A DNA stretch of 64,000 bases, taken from NCBI GenBank assembly GCA_000146045.2, contig BK006944.2:512001-576000 (forward strand), read 5' to 3'. This DNA comes from TPA_inf: Saccharomyces. Lineage: Eukaryota. Under the pieces are notes generated by a model. The model was not told the origin of the DNA, made no database searches, and saw nothing but the letters and a program-made list of their open reading frames with translations. Made by a program: the position numbers and the translations under genes. Shown here in pieces: positions 1-47,665 of the stretch (position 1 is its first letter; each line of letters starts with the position of its first letter).

Positions 1-1159
1 AATCACGCCAGGCTGCGTATACTTCATCGGTTCTGAATTTCTGCGTAACAACAGTTTCAGAAAAGTCCTTCACGATCCCACCCATTCTATACTCTAGTAG
101 TCCTGCTTGGGCAATCATAACTCCGTTATCGATACAAAACCTATTATCTGTAGCATGTACTTGCCCATTGGCCCTGTCTTTACACATTTGCGCCATCATT
201 TCTTGTAATCGCACGTTACAACCAACACCGCCTACGATCAAAACTTGATTGGAGTTAACGTGAGCCATAGCTCTTTCTGTTATTTCAACTAGCATGGCGA
301 ATAGGTTCTCTTGCAGAGAGTAGCAAAGATCCTCTACAGTGACTTTTTGCTCGCCCGTTGTCTTGTCGAATAGGATCTTATTTTTCTTATTGCCCTTAAA
401 TAGATCCTTGGCAAGTAAATCGATGGAAGCCAATATACCACTCATCGAAAGATCCATCCCCTTTACTGTATAGGGAAGTTCTACCAAGTTTTCTTTGTGA
501 GGGGCTTTTTTAGCTAACTGCTCGATGTTGTAGCCAGGCGAGGGCTCATTAGGTATCTTCAGAGTTCTTGCAAATCTATCAAGACAATTACCGATAGCAA
601 TATCAAGCGTTTCACCAAAGATACGGTACCTTTTTTCCGAGTATGCAATAACTTGTGTATTTCCACCACTTACATACAGTACCACAGGATTTTGAGCTTT
701 AGTGATTTCTCTCCCCATTTCGATGTGACCAATGCAGTGGTTTACTCCCACCAGTGGCACGTCCCACAGTAAGGAGCACGTTCTGGCGGCGATGACAACT
801 GAATGCAGAGGGGCCCCCATGCCGGGACCTTTGGTAAAGCAAATTACATCAATGTCTAGTGTCGGGCTTTTGATGTCAGCTTCGGCCAGTGCTTGTTTTA
901 TGAGTCTTATGCACCAATTTCTGTGATGCCTTGCCGTGTCTCGAGGCAAAAATCCCTCCCCAGGAGGTGTGACATATGTGTCTCTAATATTAGAAAGCAT
1001 CTCAGCTTCGCAATCATAAGATAGATCGCTGTTGGCATGTTTAGGCAGAAGCGGATGCTTAACTATACCAACGCCCAGTTTATTTGCAGAACCTTCAAGT
1101 CCAAGCGCAATGTAGTAGTCCCTGCCATTTTTGGGTGGGATAGTGTTCAAGTTGACCAT
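1..1159 (-). CDS. KAE1: Kae1/OSGEP-family tRNA t6A synthase (KEOPS subunit); 386 codons at 2..1159, stop codon falls just outside the window
   Basis: The minus-strand translation from the ATG at 1157-1159 reads [41 protein letters not shown]... and continues ...[16 protein letters not shown] to the window edge. An in-frame ATG-ATG further upstream at 1257-1262 would add 35 residues, but the conserved Kae1 N-terminus starts at MVNL. Confidence 0.85.
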
Positions 1160-1320
1160 TTTGCTCCCGACTGCATTAGGGAACGCTTGGGAATTCCCTT
1201 CACGTAAAAGATAAATATATGCATCGTTGCACGAAGTAAAAATGGTTACTCTCGAACTCATCATAATGAAAGAATTCAGTTTTTCCGTATAAAGCGATAT
1301 TACAGGAGGAATAAAAAGCA

Positions 1321-1331
1321 AAATAAAAAAT
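1321..1331 (-). terminator. Pol III terminator (oligo-T on the tRNA strand) just 3' of tRNA-Asp
   Basis: Plus strand aaataaaaaat is a run of six or more T on the minus strand, directly after the tRNA 3' end. Confidence 0.6.
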
Positions 1332-1403
1332 CTCCGCGACGGGGAATTGAACCCCGATCTGGCACGCGACAAGCGCCCATTCTGACCATTAAACTATCAC
1401 GGA
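1332..1403 (-). tRNA. tD(GUC): tRNA-Asp (anticodon GUC), 72 nt, no intron
   Basis: The reverse complement reads TCCGTGATAGTTTAATGGTCAGAATGGGCGCTTGTCGCGTGCCAGATCGGGGTTCAATTCCCCGTCGCGGAG. That is the canonical yeast tRNA-Asp, with a CTTGTCGCG anticodon loop and a GGTTCAATTCC T-arm. Confidence 0.95.
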
Positions 1404-1531
1404 ACGTTATTTGTTGGATTTTTTCTCTTAGTTTTAAATATTTATATTTCGTCGAATTGGTACCTCTACAGCTCAGAAGCAGATGTCTTCAAGTTTTTTT
1501 ATTGTGTCTAAATAAGAATCAACCATTATCT

Positions 1532-1849
1532 TGACAAATGGGTGAATTTTAAGATAATTGTTGGGATGCCATTGATGATAAAGACTATAATATACATACA
1601 CAGAATATACTAGAAATTGTACTCGAGCACATAGGAATCCTCAAAATGGAATCGATATTTCTACATAATAATACTACGATTATTTTCTGCTTTCGTTTTA
1701 TATGTTTCATTATCCTATTATATTATCAATCCTTGCATTTCAGCTTTCATTAGATTGATGACTATTTTTCAACCTTATGTCCTCTTCTTACACCGCATAT
1801 GATAGTATACTAGCAATATGAATATTACTAAACAGATGATATTTCAACA
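1532..1849 (-). mobile_element. Solo Ty1/Ty2-type delta LTR, diverged, complement orientation, about 130 bp upstream of tRNA-Asp
   Basis: Plus strand TGACAAATGGGTGAATTTTAAGATAATTGTTGGGAT...TCCTCAAAATGGAATC...ATATTACTAAACAGATGATATTTCAACA is the reverse complement of a delta (TGTTGG...TCTCA). Both termini are mutated (TGACA instead of TGAGA, TTCAACA instead of TTCCAACA). By eye it is roughly 80% identical to the second delta at 5453-5784. No flanking 5-bp direct repeat is visible. Confidence 0.8.
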
Positions 1850-2513
1850 TCATGTTTTGCTTAGTAGACTCTTGCGGGCGTTCCATCCGTGTGAAATACA
1901 TCATTTACACCTCGCTCTGGGTCAAGTAATCAAAAAATACCTCGTCGAATATCTTCGACAAATCTGTCGCTTGGTTTATGTTTGACCTGATGTATATAAA
2001 ATCATCACTACCCAATTTAGAGAACACATTGCGTTGCCCGGCCGGCAAAAAATCCTGGGCCAAAAGTTAAAAGAAACTTTCTCATACTCACTCTGAAGTT
2101 GTACTATTACGAAGCACTAAAGCATTGATAGATAAATCAACACAGAACATACATGATTAAATTAGACACAGCTCTCTGTATTTTTTACTGTTTGAACTAA
2201 GGTTCTAATACTTACACATTCTTTTCAACCCATCAGATGGTGTCTTGCCCCTGCTTACGTAACCTACAACAATAGATTAGACACACCAGTGCCAAGGACA
2301 ATATGTTGCGTTCTGACTAGTCGAAGTATCATTACGCTGTGCAGATCGACCTGACACCAGACACAAAGGAGAATAGGGGCAGCATGAGTTCCGTCGGCGA
2401 CTCATTCCGACCTTCCACAGGTCCGTTGATTACTTTTTCACTGATCCGGTGGAATCTATGGTTGTTTTTTTCATCATGATATCTGTTTTAGGACTTTTTT
2501 TTTCAGCCGATCG

Positions 2514-2826
2514 CTTATCTGCTCACTAGAATCGTAATCAGTGATATTTTTATTAATAATTATTATTTATTTTTTTTTATACCATTTCCTTTTGATAAGG
2601 GGTCGTTGGTGCCGTGCCGCTATCAGGCAGCCTCACTAATCTACCCATTGACCTCATGCAGCAAAGTCACATCGCCCATATCTCTCGAGTGCGATAACGG
2701 GGAACTTGATTTGGTAACTGATAAGATTGTTAAATGTCAGTTTGGATGCTTTTTCTTACGTCCGATTAGCTTATCTTCTGGAGCAACCGGCCATTTACCT
2801 CCTCATAGTAAATTAAACATGATAAG
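2514..2826. promoter_or_regulatory. Cluster of five GATAAG motifs (GATA-factor / nitrogen-catabolite-repression UAS type) 240-550 bp upstream of GAP1
   Basis: GATAAG or its complement CTTATC occurs at 2514-2519 (-), 2594-2599 (+), 2720-2725 (+), 2770-2775 (-) and 2821-2826 (+). GAP1 is the classic Gln3/Gat1 target. Confidence 0.6.
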
Positions 2827-3062
2827 CGCATAGTTGGGGCAACACACCTTTCTTCCGGAATTCGCTCTGGATGAGACATATAAAGATGAAGGTGAAGTCC
2901 ACTTAAATGAATGTCAATGAGACGATGTTTTTTCTCCTAGATTGATTTTTGAATTCCTTGTATACAAAGTCTTGTTTTCTTATTGTCCTCAACAAAACAA
3001 AAGTAGAAAAGAACAGACCAAGGACAGCAACATTTATAAGAAACAAAAAAAAGAAATAAAAA

Positions 3063-4871
3063 ATGAGTAATACTTCTTCGTACGAGAAGAATAATCCAGA
3101 TAATCTGAAACACAATGGTATTACCATAGATTCTGAGTTTCTAACTCAGGAGCCAATAACCATTCCCTCAAATGGCTCCGCTGTTTCTATTGACGAAACA
3201 GGTTCAGGGTCCAAATGGCAAGACTTTAAAGATTCTTTCAAAAGGGTAAAACCTATTGAAGTTGATCCTAATCTTTCAGAAGCTGAAAAAGTGGCTATCA
3301 TCACTGCCCAAACTCCATTGAAGCACCACTTGAAGAATAGACATTTGCAAATGATTGCCATCGGTGGTGCCATCGGTACTGGTCTGCTGGTTGGGTCAGG
3401 TACTGCACTAAGAACAGGTGGTCCCGCTTCGCTACTGATTGGATGGGGGTCTACAGGTACCATGATTTACGCTATGGTTATGGCTCTGGGTGAGTTGGCT
3501 GTTATCTTCCCTATTTCGGGTGGGTTCACCACGTACGCTACCAGATTTATTGATGAGTCCTTTGGTTACGCTAATAATTTCAATTATATGTTACAATGGT
3601 TGGTTGTGCTACCATTGGAAATTGTCTCTGCATCTATTACTGTAAATTTCTGGGGTACAGATCCAAAGTATAGAGATGGGTTTGTTGCGTTGTTTTGGCT
3701 TGCAATTGTTATCATCAATATGTTTGGTGTCAAAGGTTATGGTGAAGCAGAATTCGTCTTTTCATTTATCAAGGTCATCACTGTTGTTGGGTTCATCATC
3801 TTAGGTATCATTCTAAACTGTGGTGGTGGTCCAACAGGTGGTTACATTGGGGGCAAGTACTGGCATGATCCTGGTGCCTTTGCTGGTGACACTCCAGGTG
3901 CTAAATTCAAAGGTGTTTGTTCTGTCTTCGTCACCGCTGCCTTTTCTTTTGCCGGTTCAGAATTGGTTGGTCTTGCTGCCAGTGAATCCGTAGAGCCTAG
4001 AAAGTCCGTTCCTAAGGCTGCTAAACAAGTTTTCTGGAGAATCACCCTATTTTATATTCTGTCGCTATTAATGATTGGTCTTTTAGTCCCATACAACGAT
4101 AAAAGTTTGATTGGTGCCTCCTCTGTGGATGCTGCTGCTTCACCCTTCGTCATTGCCATTAAGACTCACGGTATCAAGGGTTTGCCAAGTGTTGTCAACG
4201 TCGTTATCTTGATTGCCGTGTTATCTGTCGGTAACTCTGCCATTTATGCATGTTCCAGAACAATGGTTGCCCTAGCTGAACAGAGATTTCTGCCAGAAAT
4301 CTTTTCCTACGTTGACCGTAAGGGTAGACCATTGGTGGGAATTGCTGTCACATCTGCATTCGGTCTTATTGCGTTTGTTGCCGCCTCCAAAAAGGAAGGT
4401 GAAGTTTTCAACTGGTTACTAGCCTTGTCTGGGTTGTCATCTCTATTCACATGGGGTGGTATCTGTATTTGTCACATTCGTTTCAGAAAGGCATTGGCCG
4501 CCCAAGGAAGAGGCTTGGATGAATTGTCTTTCAAGTCTCCTACCGGTGTTTGGGGTTCCTACTGGGGGTTATTTATGGTTATTATTATGTTCATTGCCCA
4601 ATTCTACGTTGCTGTATTCCCCGTGGGAGATTCTCCAAGTGCGGAAGGTTTCTTCGAAGCTTATCTATCCTTCCCACTTGTTATGGTTATGTACATCGGA
4701 CACAAGATCTATAAGAGGAATTGGAAGCTTTTCATCCCAGCAGAAAAGATGGACATTGATACGGGTAGAAGAGAAGTCGATTTAGATTTGTTGAAACAAG
4801 AAATTGCAGAAGAAAAGGCAATTATGGCCACAAAGCCAAGATGGTATAGAATCTGGAATTTCTGGTGTTAA
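3063..4871 (+). CDS. GAP1: General amino acid permease, 602 aa (APC superfamily, 12 predicted TM)
   Basis: ATG at 3063. The ORF reads MSNTSSYEKNNPDNLKHNGITIDSEF...KPRWYRIWNFWC and is 602 aa with the expected amino acid permease hydrophobic core. Confidence 0.97.
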   Translation: MSNTSSYEKNNPDNLKHNGITIDSEFLTQEPITIPSNGSAVSIDETGSGSKWQDFKDSFKRVKPIEVDPNLSEAEKVAIITAQTPLKHHLKNRHLQMIAIGGAIGTGLLVGSGTALRTGGPASLLIGWGSTGTMIYAMVMALGELAVIFPISGGFTTYATRFIDESFGYANNFNYMLQWLVVLPLEIVSASITVNFWGTDPKYRDGFVALFWLAIVIINMFGVKGYGEAEFVFSFIKVITVVGFIILGIILNCGGGPTGGYIGGKYWHDPGAFAGDTPGAKFKGVCSVFVTAAFSFAGSELVGLAASESVEPRKSVPKAAKQVFWRITLFYILSLLMIGLLVPYNDKSLIGASSVDAAASPFVIAIKTHGIKGLPSVVNVVILIAVLSVGNSAIYACSRTMVALAEQRFLPEIFSYVDRKGRPLVGIAVTSAFGLIAFVAASKKEGEVFNWLLALSGLSSLFTWGGICICHIRFRKALAAQGRGLDELSFKSPTGVWGSYWGLFMVIIMFIAQFYVAVFPVGDSPSAEGFFEAYLSFPLVMVMYIGHKIYKRNWKLFIPAEKMDIDTGRREVDLDLLKQEIAEEKAIMATKPRWYRIWNFWC

Positions 4872-5064
4872 TGAATCGAACAACGACAAAAAAAGACTTT
4901 ATTTTTTAGATAATCATAATAAATATATTTATTTTCTCGTCATTAATCTAAAGAAAAAAGGGAAATGTTTATAGTCAAAAATTGTATATTTCCGTGCACT
5001 AATAAGATAAATTATACTATGAAAGAAAGTAAGGTATTTCTATTTTTTTACTTTTTGTTATTTT

Positions 5065-5075
5065 ATTTATGTTTT
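5065..5075 (+). other. Perfect 11/11 match to the ARS consensus sequence (WTTTAYRTTTW), a candidate replication origin core in the GAP1 3' flank
   Basis: ATTTATGTTTT at 5065-5075 sits in an AT-rich stretch between the GAP1 stop and the downstream delta. An ARS has been reported inside the LTR-flanked GAP1 segment. Confidence 0.4.
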
Positions 5076-5452
5076 TCTAGGAAATGTAAAAATAAATCTT
5101 TTAGTAGACAGCGAGATGAAAACTAATCTGTGTGAGCTTCAATCAATCAATATGATTTCCCCGCATTTTGTTTGATATTTTAATTGATTCCGATTAAATC
5201 CGCTGGTAGCAGTTTTGTTTCAAACTAATTCAGCCTCCTTACTCCCCATTTCCTTATTGAACTTTGGGGATTCGGAGTTCCTTTTTTTTTCCGCCACTCC
5301 GATAACTAAACTTTGCAGTTTCACTGCTTGTTAAACATTTTCCTACTATAAATGACATTTAAAACGTAATTGAGACAAAAAAAGTTAAATCGTTATTAAC
5401 TTTCACTGCGGCTCCGCTCTTTTCCTCATAAGGAAATCCCCTCTTATGATCT

Positions 5453-5784
5453 TGAGAAATGGGGGAATGTTGAGATAATTGTTGGGATTCCATTGTTGAT
5501 AAAGGCTATAATATTAGGTATACAGAATATACTAGAAGTTCTCCTCAAGGATATAGGAATCCTCAAAATGGAATCTATATTTCTACATACTAATATTACG
5601 ATTATTCCTCATTCCGTTTTATATGTTTCATTATCCTATTACATTATCAATCCTTGCACTTCAGCTTCCTCTAACTTCGATGACAGCTTCTCATAACTTA
5701 TGTCATCATCTTAACACCGTATATGATAATATATTGATAATATAACTATTAGTTGATAGACGATAGTGGATTTTTATTCCAACA
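5453..5784 (-). mobile_element. Solo Ty1 delta LTR (332 bp), complement orientation, with a perfect 5-bp target-site duplication
   Basis: Plus strand TGAGAAATGGGGGAATGTTGAGATAATTGTTGGGATTCCATTGTTGATAAAGGCTATAATATTAGGTATACAGAATATACTAGAAGTTCTCCTCAAGGATATAGGAATCCTCAAAATGGAATCTATATTTCTACATACTAATATTACGATTATTCCTCATTCC...TTTTTATTCCAACA is a full-length reverse-complemented delta. It is flanked by GATCT at 5448-5452 and again at 5785-5789. Confidence 0.9.
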
Positions 5785-5848
5785 GATCTTGATATAAGCC
5801 CTGTCATTGATTGCAAATGCACAAATTCCGGAGATTGAACAGCCAACA
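5785..5848 (-). mobile_element. Possible LTR-terminus fragment abutting the delta
   Basis: The reverse complement of 5785-5848 begins TGTTGGCTGTTCAATCTCCGGAATTTGTGC, an LTR-like TGTTGG start. I cannot assign it to a Ty family from memory. Confidence 0.2.
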
Positions 5849-5987
5849 CAAAGATAGTATTTGGGACTTAGCGGGTTGAGAACGGTAATTATATCATGAA
5901 TACTCCACTCCAAGCTTGTTTGATACATCACATTCTTGTAAAAATATATGATCCAATTCCTAGGACATCAGAAAATATATCTACTAT

Positions 5988-6060
5988 GGGCGTGTGGCGT
6001 AGTCGGTAGCGCGCTCCCTTAGCATGGGAGAGGTCTCCGGTTCGATTCCGGACTCGTCCA
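5988..6060 (+). tRNA. tA(AGC): tRNA-Ala (anticodon AGC), 73 nt
   Basis: GGGCGTGTGGCGTAGTCGGTAGCGCGCTCCCTTAGCATGGGAGAGGTCTCCGGTTCGATTCCGGACTCGTCCA has a G3:U70 acceptor pair, a TTAGCAT anticodon loop and a GGTTCGATTCC T-arm. Confidence 0.95.
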
Positions 6061-6085
6061 TTTTAAAATTTCTTTTTTTTTTTTT
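6061..6085 (+). terminator. Pol III terminator (TTTT, then a T13 run) immediately 3' of tRNA-Ala
   Basis: ttttaaaatttcttttttttttttt begins at 6061. Confidence 0.6.
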
Positions 6086-6566
6086 CTCTTTCCGTATGTA
6101 AGCTTTTTTCCTTTTTTTTTTTTTTTTTTTTTTTTTTTTCTTCACTACTTTTCAATGAAACTCTCTTCAAAAGACAGCATGCAGTAAAAGCGCCGATATG
6201 AGTGACGACGATTATATGAACAGCGATGACGACAACGACGCCGAAAAAAGATACGTAAGGCCAATTTTCGTCAGAAAGCGCAGGAGAGAAGAAGACTACG
6301 TTGCAACTAGCAAAGACAACATCCACCACCACCCATGCGATTGGTCCGCGAAACCATCGCAACGTCAAAACGAAAATGAGCAAAAAAGCACCATACGGCT
6401 TGTACCAGTGGCGATGAATACGCCGAAGTGTCAAGAGAAAAAAAAGAAAAGAAAGGGCGTTGGTACAACTAGTCATGAGGCTACGCTTTTCGAGTACGGT
6501 GAAAGCATAGCAGGCTACAAGTGTGTTACAACCGAGAGCGAAAGAGACCGCTTGAAACGAAGTCAT
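6063..6566 (-). CDS. YKR040C: Dubious ORF (167 aa) antisense to YKR041W, unlikely to be a real protein
   Basis: Its sequence is dominated by the poly-T tract (KKKKKKKKKKK) and the antisense of the YKR041W N-terminus. Confidence 0.15.
   Translation of the reverse strand: MTSFQAVSFALGCNTLVACYAFTVLEKRSLMTSCTNALSFLFFLLTLRRIHRHWYKPYGAFLLIFVLTLRWFRGPIAWVVVDVVFASCNVVFFSPALSDENWPYVSFFGVVVVIAVHIIVVTHIGAFTACCLLKRVSLKSSEEKKKKKKKKKEKSLHTEREKKKKKF
6112..6139. repeat. Homopolymer T28
   Basis: A 28-nt uninterrupted T run. It is read as poly-Lys in the dubious antisense ORF. Confidence 0.95.
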
Positions 6567-6950
6567 GAAAGCGAAAGCAGCAGTGAAAGCGAGGTAGACG
6601 TTTTCGCCTTTGACCAGGCAAAAGGTATCAGCTCTAAGGTTGAAGCCGAAGAACGCTACGCGCGGGCCGTTCGACAGTATTGGCGCATGACCAAAGACGA
6701 GCCGGCTACCTTACCACTGCCAGGCACACCTACCCTAGCGGCTGTGAGTTTAGATATGATTGATGACAAAAGCGTAGAACAATTTTACACAATGAGCAGT
6801 GCCTTGATGGATGCAAACAGACTAGACTTGATTCGCCGCGATAGAATCCGGTGGCACCCGGACAAACATCGTTATCATAAGTCCAAAGTCACAAAACTGT
6901 TTCAGGCCATTAACGGCCTGTGGGAGCAAGAAAAGACCGAGAAAAGGTAA
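6198..6950 (+). CDS. YKR041W: Uncharacterised 250-aa acidic/basic low-complexity protein
   Basis: ATG at 6198. The ORF reads MSDDDYMNSDDDNDAEKRYVRPIFVRKRRREEDY... and is 250 aa. Confidence 0.8.
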   Translation: MSDDDYMNSDDDNDAEKRYVRPIFVRKRRREEDYVATSKDNIHHHPCDWSAKPSQRQNENEQKSTIRLVPVAMNTPKCQEKKKKRKGVGTTSHEATLFEYGESIAGYKCVTTESERDRLKRSHESESSSESEVDVFAFDQAKGISSKVEAEERYARAVRQYWRMTKDEPATLPLPGTPTLAAVSLDMIDDKSVEQFYTMSSALMDANRLDLIRRDRIRWHPDKHRYHKSKVTKLFQAINGLWEQEKTEKR

Positions 6951-7250
6951 TGAAAAAGTGGAACTAGACCCCACGTCAGCGGGCCTAGGCCCTTCAATGT
7001 GTTAGAATACACAGCGTGCCTAGTTCCTGGTGCCTGGATCTCGAGGCCGCGGCACTGGAAAAGCCCTTTCTTTTCCAGATCGGGAAACCTAATGAGTCCA
7101 TAAAAAGAAATGTAGAGGTGGTGTTGACGTTTTGCCGCTTTTGGGCAAGTAGGTCTTTCTGCACGGCCCGGCCCGGGTCGTGCGGAAAAAGAAAAAAGCA
7201 GACAAAACAAAATTTTTCCTTTTTTTCGCCTTTGTTTCTCCTGATTCGGG

Positions 7251-7258
7251 TATATAAG
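7251..7258 (+). promoter_or_regulatory. Candidate TATA box (TATATAAG) about 270 bp upstream of the UTH1 ATG
   Basis: gggtatataagtg at 7248-7260. Confidence 0.35.
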
Positions 7259-7526
7259 TGAATACCATCTAATGTGTTTCCTTCTCGAGACCTCGGCGTC
7301 TCCCAGATCAAAGCTCAGCAAAGATTTTAAACCGCAATTTACGCTCCTTTCATCGGTAACTAAGAAGAAAAAAAAAAAAGTACGACCACACAATTTCCAG
7401 TGTATTCATTCCTTAAACTTCGTTTATTTTTTATTCATTCATTCATTTTTATTTGAATATAACCAACTACTAGTCCTTCCTTTAAACAAAAATTTACCCT
7501 CCCTTAATTTTTCAAGAAATTCCAGT

Positions 7527-39680: not shown

Positions 39681-40002
39681 GTATGTTCGAGAAATCTATA
39701 AGATTTTTTATATTTTAACGGATGAATGGAAAGTGCATGGCTGTTTAAATAAATGTAAGAAAGATATCATAATGCAAACAAAACGTAGGCATCCGCAATG
39801 TATGGAAAACATACTTATGGTTACCGATAATAAGCAACTCCGAAGGTGCCATAGACCAGCTCTGAATGCAGCCTACAAAAGTTGAGCAATTTCTGACAAA
39901 ATTCTTCGATTACTTTCTTCACATGTATTAAATCATCACTCACCACCACCAACAATGTGTTTTTTAAACTAGCATAACTAACAAAGATTTGTTTTACATC
40001 AG
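39681..40002 (+). other. RPS21A: RPS21A spliceosomal intron, 322 nt
   Basis: 5' splice site GTATGT at 39681. Branch-point-like TAACTAAC at 39975-39982. 3' splice site CATCAG at 39997-40002. Confidence 0.88.
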
Positions 40003-46954: not shown

Positions 46955-47665
46955 CGAGAAAAGCGTGTATCCGCATACTATAAATACGTATATATAACAA
47001 AGTAACCATCAAGAAAGATGTTCCATACCTCAGGTCATCACCATTTCATGGGTCGCTTAACCGAAAATATCAGAAGCAACCTCTAACGGCGATGGTTTTA
47101 AAGATGGATTACCTCAGCACCAACAGTTACACTATTCGGAACCGAAGATTTATCTACGATACTCATTATCCTTTCTCTATCTCACCCTGAAATAATTTAT
47201 TAAAAATAAACTATGCCAAAGAAGAGAAAAGAGAAAAATTTAAAAAAAACGAGAGCCATTGCAACAGTTTTGGAAGTAAGAATAGGTTGAAAATTAGTCA
47301 AAAAGACAAATCCGGCTCCTATAAACCATCAAACAATAGGCTCCCTAAAGCATCACAAATTGTTATGCTTTCTTTTAAGAGAAATGTTTTTTAAAGCATC
47401 AAAGGTCCAGGGCAAGAAAAATTCTTTCTGGTAGCAAATGCTATAGTTCACGGCTTTTATAGTCAAAATGTTATATGCGAGAAGAAAAAGAAAAGCGCGA
47501 GCTTACTTCGGGTAAGAAGTTCACTTACGAATCAGGGCAAAAGAGCTAATAAGAAGTGAACTAGTTACATAACCGTGTGCTCTGTAGAACACGAGAAAGC
47601 TGTTACACAGAACTGTTTTATACCAAGTAGTTCGTTCGATTTGGAAAAGAGAGTAGTCTTTTGCG

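Follow-up and report, generated by a model that had tools for sequence, protein, structure and literature searches.

Intrachromatid recombination between direct repeats is the common source of the circular DNAs derived from Ty elements and their LTRs (PMC4751563; PMC5173269) and of rDNA circles, which persist only when they carry an origin. The GAP1 locus of Saccharomyces cerevisiae resembles these systems in mechanism, although its repeats are two diverged solo LTRs that stem from separate insertions and flank a single selectable gene, rather than the LTR pair of one Ty element or the units of a tandem array. A second related process, origin-dependent inverted-repeat amplification (ODIRA), likewise requires that the segment to be amplified contain an origin, and it acts at this locus via ARS1116 (PMC11790251; PMC6298651). 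Unlike recombination between the LTRs, it uses short inverted repeats and replication template switching and is independent of the deltas; its products are inverted triplications whose breakpoints lie beyond the LTRs. The closest engineered counterpart is the GAP1 locus of synXI, in which the same unit of promoter, GAP1 and ARS1116 is bounded by recombination sites and can be released as circles or expanded on demand (PMC10667340). There, however, Cre drives recombination at loxPsym sites of 34 bp, and the locus has been stripped of its tRNA genes and LTRs.

The window analyzed here is a 64-kb stretch of DNA in which the proteins Gap1p, Kae1p and YKR041W are identical, by protein sequence comparison, to those of S. 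cerevisiae S288C. Adding 512,000 to a window position gives the S288C-type chromosome XI coordinate; positions 1332–6060 correspond in this way to chrXI:513332-518060, the published GAP1 locus (PMC11790251, Figure 4 legend). Compared with the described YKRCdelta11-GAP1-ARS1116-YKRCdelta12 arrangement, from which the GAP1circle and gap1 deletion alleles derive (PMC3656021; PMC6298651; PMC10667340; PMC11790251), the proteins, coordinates, LTR identity, orientation, ARS and tRNA genes are the same, and we found no difference. Its elements have established names (YKRCdelta11, YKRCdelta12 and ARS1116), and we met no evidence against the identification. We are almost certain that 1332–6060 is the S288C-type GAP1 locus, with an architecture that arose by accident of Ty targeting and that recombines by the published mechanism.

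Since the cassette has already been published as a standard example, we make no claim of discovery. It serves as a standard model of the way in which repeats combined with an origin influence adaptive copy-number change and the formation of extrachromosomal circular DNA, and oncogene amplification offers parallels. As the result of a scan, it serves as a positive control: an experimentally validated recombination cassette was recovered from raw sequence by a reader, and the coordinates of that sequence-only reading all hold on re-examination. Our additions are small: a footprint that points to 5065–5075 as the ORC site, an ancestral tRNA frame, and a candidate natural recombinant.

Two diverged direct repeats around GAP1

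The left solo delta LTR, YKRCdelta11 (1532–1849, minus strand, 318 bp), was delimited by alignment and BLAST and is named in earlier work (PMC11790251; PMC10667340; PMC3656021); the right one, YKRCdelta12 (5453–5784, minus strand, 332 bp), was delimited in the same way. Read on the plus strand, the left LTR runs from TGAC to CAACA and the right from TGAG to CAACA, which gives TG…CA ends on both strands. The sequence-only reading had placed the two in the same orientation on either side of GAP1, and the pair indeed aligns as three collinear direct blocks (D1–D3) with a spacing of 3921–3922 bp. The opposite orientation is ruled out, as the reverse-complement control alignment reached 54% identity versus 80% for the direct one. 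The estimate of about 80% identity was also accurate: 267 of 333 columns are identical in the global alignment (80.2%, or 84.2% over ungapped columns), and BLAST of the left against the right LTR gave 82.5% over 314 columns (E = 6e-84). BLAST detected no further delta copies in the 64-kb window that could serve as alternative partners, and deltas of other strains match at 84–96% when copies at the GAP1 locus are compared.

Aligning the deltas to locate their longest identical stretch, a check that had been proposed with the initial reading, yielded a block of 27 bp (1694–1720 in the left LTR, 5615–5641 in the right), followed by one of 23 bp (1631–1653 in the left LTR, with its partner at 5553) and by three 16-bp blocks. 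The 27-bp block is likely to be the preferred crossover zone.

The two LTRs differ in how well their insertion history is preserved. The right LTR is flanked by a perfect 5-bp target-site duplication, GATCT (5448–5452 and 5785–5789), and empty-site alleles carry a single GATCT. No target-site duplication is present in the flanks of the left LTR (TATCT versus TCATG), which therefore has a less simple history; its flanks may have decayed over a long time, or two different Ty elements may have recombined there earlier. Compared with YKRCdelta12, the left LTR is missing internal segments, and it is therefore probably the more ancient, decayed one of the two.

Between them the LTRs bracket 3603 bp (1850–5452), in agreement with the 3.6 kb first reported, and both GAP1 and the ARS-consensus match lie within this interval. 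GAP1 (YKR039W; 3063–4871, plus strand) encodes the general amino-acid permease of 602 amino acids; the ORF matches the Pfam AA_permease family (PF00324) with E = 1.5e-170, and its product is letter for letter the amino acid permease GAP1 of S. cerevisiae S288C. In the upstream region and promoter (1850–3062, plus strand), a motif scan identified a cluster of GATAA/TTATC sites within 2515–2827 (at 2515, 2594, 2693, 2720, 2771 and 2821), which we take to be the nitrogen-regulated UAS of GAP1.

ARS1116 and the consensus match at 5065–5075

ARS1116 sits between GAP1 and delta12 (PMC11790251, Figure 1 legend; PMC10667340), in the 3′ intergenic region of GAP1 (4872–5452), where the A+T content is 70% overall and 79% across 5000–5130. 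It is a catalogued origin that is bound by ORC, with both Orc1 and Orc2 enriched (PMC7332104). The perfect ARS-consensus match that the sequence-only reading had noted, ATTTATGTTTT, is present at 5065–5075 on the plus strand (pattern WTTTAYRTTTW), but as a lone motif it is no better than chance: the 64-kb window contains two perfect matches where 2.96 are expected, and the probability of at least one in the 581-bp intergenic region is ~0.11.

These figures are what would be expected if the match were a chance occurrence in AT-rich sequence and ORC used another functional site within 4872–5452. Six 10/11 matches close by could fit such an explanation, as could the entry for ARS1116 in PMC3772097, which classes the origin as “chromatin-dependent” and gives its ACS status as “not tested.” We nevertheless consider a chance match unlikely, given how the motif behaves across species. 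In S. cerevisiae, S. uvarum and S. eubayanus alike, the 3′ intergenic region contains a single perfect match, on the same strand and at +194, +172 and +164 nt from the stop codon, respectively; under a null that considers composition only, a match at the homologous position has P ~0.003–0.004 in each of the latter two species. In the cross-species comparison, the spacer aligns poorly outside a few conserved blocks, one of which holds the match, and the 45-bp context of the match is invariant across all S. cerevisiae haplotypes examined, divergent ones included. Neighboring 10/11 matches begin at 5036 and 5046 on the plus strand and occupy 5081–5091 and 5087–5097 in inverted orientation, and flanking inverted near-matches are predicted for paired ORC sites. 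Thus, judged by its conservation, 5065–5075 is the probable ORC site of ARS1116. As an 11-bp match is insufficient, the ARS call is founded on the ORC-bound, catalogued ARS1116 (PMC7332104) together with cross-species conservation.

An ancestral tRNA frame and polymorphic LTRs

The 64-kb window contains only two tRNA genes, one beyond each LTR. tRNA-Asp(GTC), by position tD(GUC)K, occupies 1332–1403 on the minus strand (ARAGORN, 1331–1404; Rfam RF00005, 56.3 bits), and tRNA-Ala(AGC), by position tA(AGC)K2, occupies 5988–6060 on the plus strand (ARAGORN; Rfam, 59.5 bits). The genes point apart, such that the upstream sides of both face GAP1, and each LTR lies upstream of its own tRNA gene, at 128 bp from tRNA-Asp and 203 bp from tRNA-Ala; the initial reading had given about 130 and 200 bp.

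The order tRNA-Asp, GAP1, tRNA-Ala is the same in S. uvarum and S. eubayanus. tRNA-Asp is 100% identical at the syntenic position in both species and tRNA-Ala is kept, whereas comparison of the syntenic locus revealed no direct delta pair around GAP1 in either. The tRNA-GAP1-tRNA frame is ancestral and the LTRs are lineage specific and polymorphic among strains, evidence that places their arrival recently. It is established that Ty1 favors positions upstream of genes transcribed by Pol III (PMC11790251). This targeting would account for an LTR on the GAP1-facing side of each tRNA gene, and we infer that the LTRs are owed to the tRNA genes. The cassette is likely to have been assembled as follows. 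Two tRNA genes pointing in divergent directions would have flanked GAP1 before the Saccharomyces species split, and Ty1-type elements would have inserted just upstream of each. Both insertions would later have collapsed to the solo LTRs YKRCdelta11 and YKRCdelta12, in the same orientation by chance, enclosing a 3.6-kb segment with the GAP1 promoter, GAP1 and ARS1116.

Variation among S. cerevisiae assemblies is most evident on the right. A delta upstream of tRNA-Ala occurs at three sites, with target-site duplications GATCT, GATTG and CACTG, and a fourth position, lying 85 bp past the empty S288C site, survives only as a 151-bp delta fragment at the junction of the GAP1 duplication in L010/L019 and shows no target-site duplication. 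The site of the S288C right LTR is empty in three haplotypes; in L004/L015 and L008/L017, where it is empty, a nearby delta has the same orientation. Insertions in the opposite orientation occur at the GAP1 locus in L003/L014, and an LTR of S. eubayanus is also in the opposite orientation. An apparent absence of the right LTR from two further assemblies (L001 and L007) was rejected, as stretches of N interrupt the LTR in both. One surveyed locus (L005) has synXI-like properties, with loxPsym in place of the LTRs.

Could the LTR pair and the ARS instead be a selected “hub-switch,” a bet-hedging device that selection keeps because stochastic, reversible deletion and circle formation are of use when nitrogen fluctuates? 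This has been proposed, and the genotypes concerned have opposite fitness effects across nitrogen sources (PMC3656021). The direct-repeat layout also recurs in the L004/L015 and L008/L017 haplotypes despite the empty S288C site, and evolving strains from which the LTRs had been removed regain it through new Ty insertions upstream of tRNA genes, which rebuild the recombination substrates (PMC11790251). Ty1 targeting to Pol III genes, however, predicts recurrent insertion without selection. S. uvarum and S. eubayanus lack the direct pair, even though they have kept the tRNA frame and the ACS, and the right LTR varies between strains in both presence and position. The L003/L014 and S. eubayanus LTRs are in the opposite orientation, and the S288C pair is decaying, with 82% identity and a left copy that is truncated and has no target-site duplication. 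We therefore regard a selected switch as very unlikely; we see the cassette, most plausibly, as something that Ty targeting produced by accident rather than as a purpose-built switch.

Recombination and copy-number change

The sequence-only reading proposed that recombination between the LTRs deletes GAP1 or releases it as a self-replicating circle, and that both outcomes had been reported here. This is the published account of the locus and is supported. As summarized in PMC3656021, Gresham et al. (2010) attributed 90% of gap1 deletions to recombination between YKRCdelta11 and YKRCdelta12 and described a self-replicating GAP1 circle as the product. Another description gives the LTRs 82% identity, places them “in tandem orientation” and locates ARS1116 in the interval that they enclose (PMC11790251). 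In the published mechanism, intrachromatid homologous recombination between the ~82%-identical LTRs releases a circle of ~3.9 kb carrying one hybrid LTR, GAP1 and the ARS, and since it carries an ARS, such a circle can replicate on its own; the chromosome left after the pop-out has a gap1 deletion, and the other hybrid LTR, the reciprocal one, stays with it. When sister chromatids instead exchange unequally at these LTRs, the result is a tandem duplication, and tandem GAP1 duplication via delta11 and delta12 has been published. Hybrid delta11/delta12 junctions were recovered together with tandem duplications in one study (PMC6298651), and hybrid LTR junctions are also among the experimental junctions of another (PMC11790251). 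Growth on ammonium, urea or allantoin favors the deletion, and glutamine limitation favors extra copies of GAP1.

A candidate natural recombinant is present in one public wild-strain assembly (L010/L019; strain CNT, GCA_030035955.1, for L019), which contains a tandem duplication of GAP1 joined by a hybrid delta, with apparent 1-bp indels in copy 1; the assembly is “collapsed” and the strain heterozygous. In the LTR at the junction, the switch to delta11-type sequence occurs at the 27-bp identity block. The two copies differ in haplotype, with promoters 96.5% and 99.7% identical to that of the window, and the right-hand end of the duplication has no LTR. A simple unequal sister exchange is not favored as the source, since the copies belong to different haplotypes and the right end is without an LTR. 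Exchange between homologues, re-integration of a circle, or an assembly artefact are possible sources. If the duplication is real and same-orientation pairs are over-represented, switching would not be confined to chemostats. We think it rather improbable, however, that LTR-mediated copy-number switching of GAP1 operates and may be favored in nature, with populations carrying its products and rebuilding the cassette.

How much do the LTRs contribute to amplification? Evolution experiments have already been run with strains that lack the LTRs, the ARS or both (PMC11790251). It is quite conceivable, although we lean against it, that the LTRs are largely bystanders and that copy-number change at GAP1 is mainly origin driven, via ODIRA near ARS1116 and distal repeats. 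ODIRA accounted for 22 of 37 amplification clones in the wild type and 42 of 52 in the LTR-deleted strain. The rate of CNV formation, 4.5e-5 in the wild type, fell further upon loss of the ARS (2.4e-6) than upon loss of the LTRs (1e-5). Moreover, GAP1 CNVs arose in all strains, amplification persisting in the absence of the LTRs (PMC11790251), and no GAP1 circles were recovered under selection in later evolution experiments (PMC6298651). On the other side, nonallelic homologous recombination (NAHR) between the LTRs produced 11 of the 37 wild-type clones and every one of the focal amplifications, and deleting the LTRs lowered the formation rate ~4.5-fold (PMC11790251). The LTR-mediated share of deletions (90%) and the candidate natural duplication with its hybrid LTR likewise argue for a direct role of the LTRs. 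In the published data, ODIRA is the commonest route of amplification and LTR recombination a minority one. The cassette is only one of several routes to a changed GAP1 copy number, with ODIRA via ARS1116 the more frequent one for amplification. How this balance falls bears on the weight of the LTRs in amplification and not on the identity of the cassette.

Elements of the GAP1 locus

The sequence-only reading had placed GAP1 in a ready-made excision cassette, bounded by two solo delta LTRs and two tRNA genes, and all of its elements were re-derived at the same coordinates by reading positions 1-7500 and with annotation and alignment tools. The 602-codon ORF at 3063-4871 (Pfam AA_permease, E = 1.5e-170) encodes a protein identified by exact-sequence look-up as amino acid permease GAP1 of Saccharomyces cerevisiae S288C. 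ARAGORN and Rfam both place tRNA-Asp(GTC) at 1332-1403 (- strand) and tRNA-Ala(AGC) at 5988-6060 (+ strand), and the 64 kb window contains no others. Exact-sequence look-up also identified the neighboring Kae1p gene (2-1159, - strand; NP_012964.2) and YKR041W (6198-6947; NP_012967.1). Since the GAP1 locus described in eLife in 2025, chrXI:513332-518060 (PMC11790251), equals 1332-6060 plus 512,000, the window begins at about chrXI 512,001. The LTRs are known as YKRCdelta11 and YKRCdelta12 and the origin as ARS1116 (PMC11790251; PMC10667340; PMC3656021). A 36-T run (94% pure) occupies 6104-6139, ~45 bp downstream of tRNA-Ala and before YKR041W. Elsewhere in the window, snR42, an H/ACA snoRNA, gives a full-length Rfam match at 47016-47366 (- strand; 383.8 bits).

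YKRCdelta11 (1532-1849, complement, 318 bp) and YKRCdelta12 (5453-5784, complement, 332 bp) do share one orientation, as had been claimed: a repeat finder returned three collinear direct-repeat blocks between 1525-1746 and 5446-5667, at a spacing of 3921-3922, and a reverse-complement control reached only 54% identity, versus 80.2%. Both copies begin TGA and finish AACA on the plus strand and are thus TG...CA elements on the complement strand. The proposed identity of ~80% agrees with global alignment (267 of 333 columns, 80.2%; 84.2% of ungapped columns) and with BLAST (82.5% across 314 columns, E = 6e-84), which found no third delta copy in the window. Each LTR lies on the upstream side of its tRNA gene, at 128 bp on the left and 203 bp on the right (~130 and ~200 bp in the earlier reading), and the segment between the LTRs, put at 3.6 kb, measures 3603 bp; the circle from a single crossover would measure ~3.92-3.94 kb. 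YKRCdelta11 is without a target-site duplication (TATCT at 1527-1531 versus TCATG at 1850-1854) and, compared with YKRCdelta12, is missing ~14 bp close to one of its ends. Either the insertion is old, or this LTR is what remained after two different Ty elements recombined.

LTR recombination and GAP1 amplification

The longest tract of identity between the two LTRs is 27 bp (1694-1720 / 5615-5641), followed by a 23-bp tract (1631-1653 / 5553-5575) and three 16-bp tracts. With ~18% divergence and such short tracts, exchange should drop strongly in yeast mitotic recombination, the expected cause being mismatch-repair-dependent heteroduplex rejection. The nearest measured figure on the contribution of the LTRs is a copy-number variant (CNV) rate that is 4.5-fold lower once they are removed (PMC11790251).

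That LTR-LTR recombination yields a GAP1 deletion or a self-replicating circle is established, as both products have been published (PMC3656021). That paper, by authors of the original study, ascribes 90% of gap1 deletions, which are advantageous on ammonium, allantoin and urea, to recombination between the two LTRs, and reports the circle from glutamine limitation. The GAP1 circle has been termed the canonical functional eccDNA of yeast (PMC10667340). A further study, in which no selected GAP1 circles were found, obtained tandem duplications and an LTR-bounded deletion with hybrid delta11/delta12 junctions (PMC6298651). Strains were constructed without the LTRs, without the ARS or without both; CNVs formed at a rate of 4.5e-5 in wild type but at only 1e-5 with the LTRs deleted and 2.4e-6 with the ARS deleted, and the LTRs were described as tandemly oriented, with 82% identity (PMC11790251). 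Wild-type amplifications arose by origin-dependent inverted-repeat amplification (ODIRA) in 22/37 cases and by nonallelic homologous recombination (NAHR) between the LTRs in 11/37, and when local elements were removed, fresh Ty insertions upstream of tRNA genes rebuilt recombination substrates (PMC11790251). The excision cassette is an apt description for deletions but overstates the role of the LTRs in amplification, because ODIRA through ARS1116 predominates. Our analysis supports the earlier interpretation as correct and entirely known already; as the cassette has been thoroughly characterized, including by experiment, it is of low interest as a discovery.

The ARS consensus within ARS1116

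The claimed perfect match to the ARS consensus (ACS; WTTTAYRTTTW) is present at 5065-5075. The window contains two perfect matches, versus 2.96 expected, and the probability of at least one in the 581-bp GAP1 3′ spacer is ~0.11 under a first-order Markov null; by itself, the motif carries no weight as evidence. The other match lies at 39706-39716 (+ strand; TTTTATATTTT). ARS1116 is a real, ORC-bound origin (PMC7332104), classed as "chromatin-dependent" by Hoggard et al., who list its ACS as "not tested" (PMC3772097); we found no publication that maps its essential ACS.

The corresponding loci in S. uvarum and S. eubayanus were located by synteny, via their Kae1 proteins, and the GAP1 3′ spacers were aligned. 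In all three species the spacer contains a single perfect ACS, always on the same strand, 194 (S. cerevisiae), 172 (S. uvarum) and 164 nt (S. eubayanus) downstream of the stop codon; TTTTATTTATGTTTTT is common to S. cerevisiae and S. uvarum within a spacer that aligns poorly elsewhere. The chance of a same-strand match within 30 nt is ~0.003-0.004 per species, S. uvarum and S. eubayanus being sisters and thus non-independent. The S. cerevisiae ACS lies within a cluster of 10/11 matches (two same-strand, two inverted, in 62 bp), and its 45-bp context does not vary in any strain haplotype examined. Together, position and conservation suggest that 5065-5075 is probably the ORC site of ARS1116. 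The longest conserved block of the spacer is GCCACTCCGATAACTA at 5293-5308, which is invariant in the three species and includes a GATAA motif.

Variation and origin of the LTR layout

Among 20 loci from public S. cerevisiae assemblies, each encoding identical Gap1p, the majority have the S288C arrangement. Two apparent right-LTR exceptions (L001 and L007) were rejected, as they contain runs of N. One locus carries an extra inverted delta (L003:2452-2789 = L014:8452-8789; duplication ATGTT) 7 bp past the right end of YKRCdelta11; it is 96% identical to YKRCdelta12 and would pair with each of the two resident LTRs as an inverted repeat. Another has a ~370 bp TG...CA element nested in YKRCdelta11 (L004:2186-2556 = L015:8186-8556; 5-bp duplication GACTA), which is not delta-like and, judging by size, may be another Ty-family solo LTR. 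Here the right delta (within L004:6390-6750) has a separate duplication, GATTG, and is shifted 24 bp toward tRNA-Ala from the S288C site, which is empty. The S288C site is also empty in L008/L017, where a different delta in the same orientation (within L008:6255-6600; duplication CACTG) lies 126 bp further left, and in L010/L019 (L010:6380-6590). The delta upstream of tRNA-Ala is thus polymorphic, its S288C site (5448-5789) being empty in three haplotypes; a fourth insertion point, 85 bp right of that site, occurs only in the L010/L019 junction. L005 (GCA_032463425.1, CP135974.1, 659.5 kb) is without tRNA genes and LTRs, and its GAP1 is synonymously recoded (DNA 96.8% identical, protein identical) with ~34-37 bp inserted after the stop codon, the appearance expected of synXI, in which loxPsym sites replace the LTRs (PMC10667340).

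L010/L019 also contains a tandem GAP1-ARS duplication (L019:5847-12660; GCA_030035955.1, CANCFI010000012.1). tRNA-Asp and delta11 are followed by copy 1 (promoter, GAP1 and ARS region), native sequence running 85 bp beyond the empty delta12 site, a 151-bp opposite-orientation delta fragment, a full-length hybrid delta, copy 2 (same parts), an empty delta12 site and tRNA-Ala. The initial ~160 bp of the hybrid are foreign-type and the remainder, from the CGTTTTATATGTTTCATTATCCTATTA block on, is delta11-type; this switch point is the 27-bp identity tract. A hybrid of this kind would be expected from NAHR between delta11 and a delta on the right-hand side. The two GAP1 copies belong to different haplotypes; the strain is heterozygous and its assembly collapsed, with gene names that point to the "CNT collapsed" assembly. 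The duplication may reflect true exchange between homologues, re-integration of a circle or an artefact of assembly. Three 1-bp indels break the copy 1 reading frame. The one whose surroundings were inspected, at ORF position 224, is a missing A in a five-A run, and the indels are possibly sequencing errors.

In S. uvarum and S. eubayanus, tRNA-Asp, GAP1 and tRNA-Ala keep their order and orientation, and both tRNA genes are 100% identical. Neither flank of GAP1 carries a delta in S. uvarum, and S. eubayanus has a single delta-like LTR, on the right and in opposite orientation. As the outgroups keep the tRNA frame without the LTR pair, the frame is ancestral and the pair specific to the S. cerevisiae lineage. 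The layout may be a selected switch, but insertions that recur independently on the upstream side of one Pol III gene, and in either orientation, match the prediction of Ty1 targeting and favor an accidental by-product.
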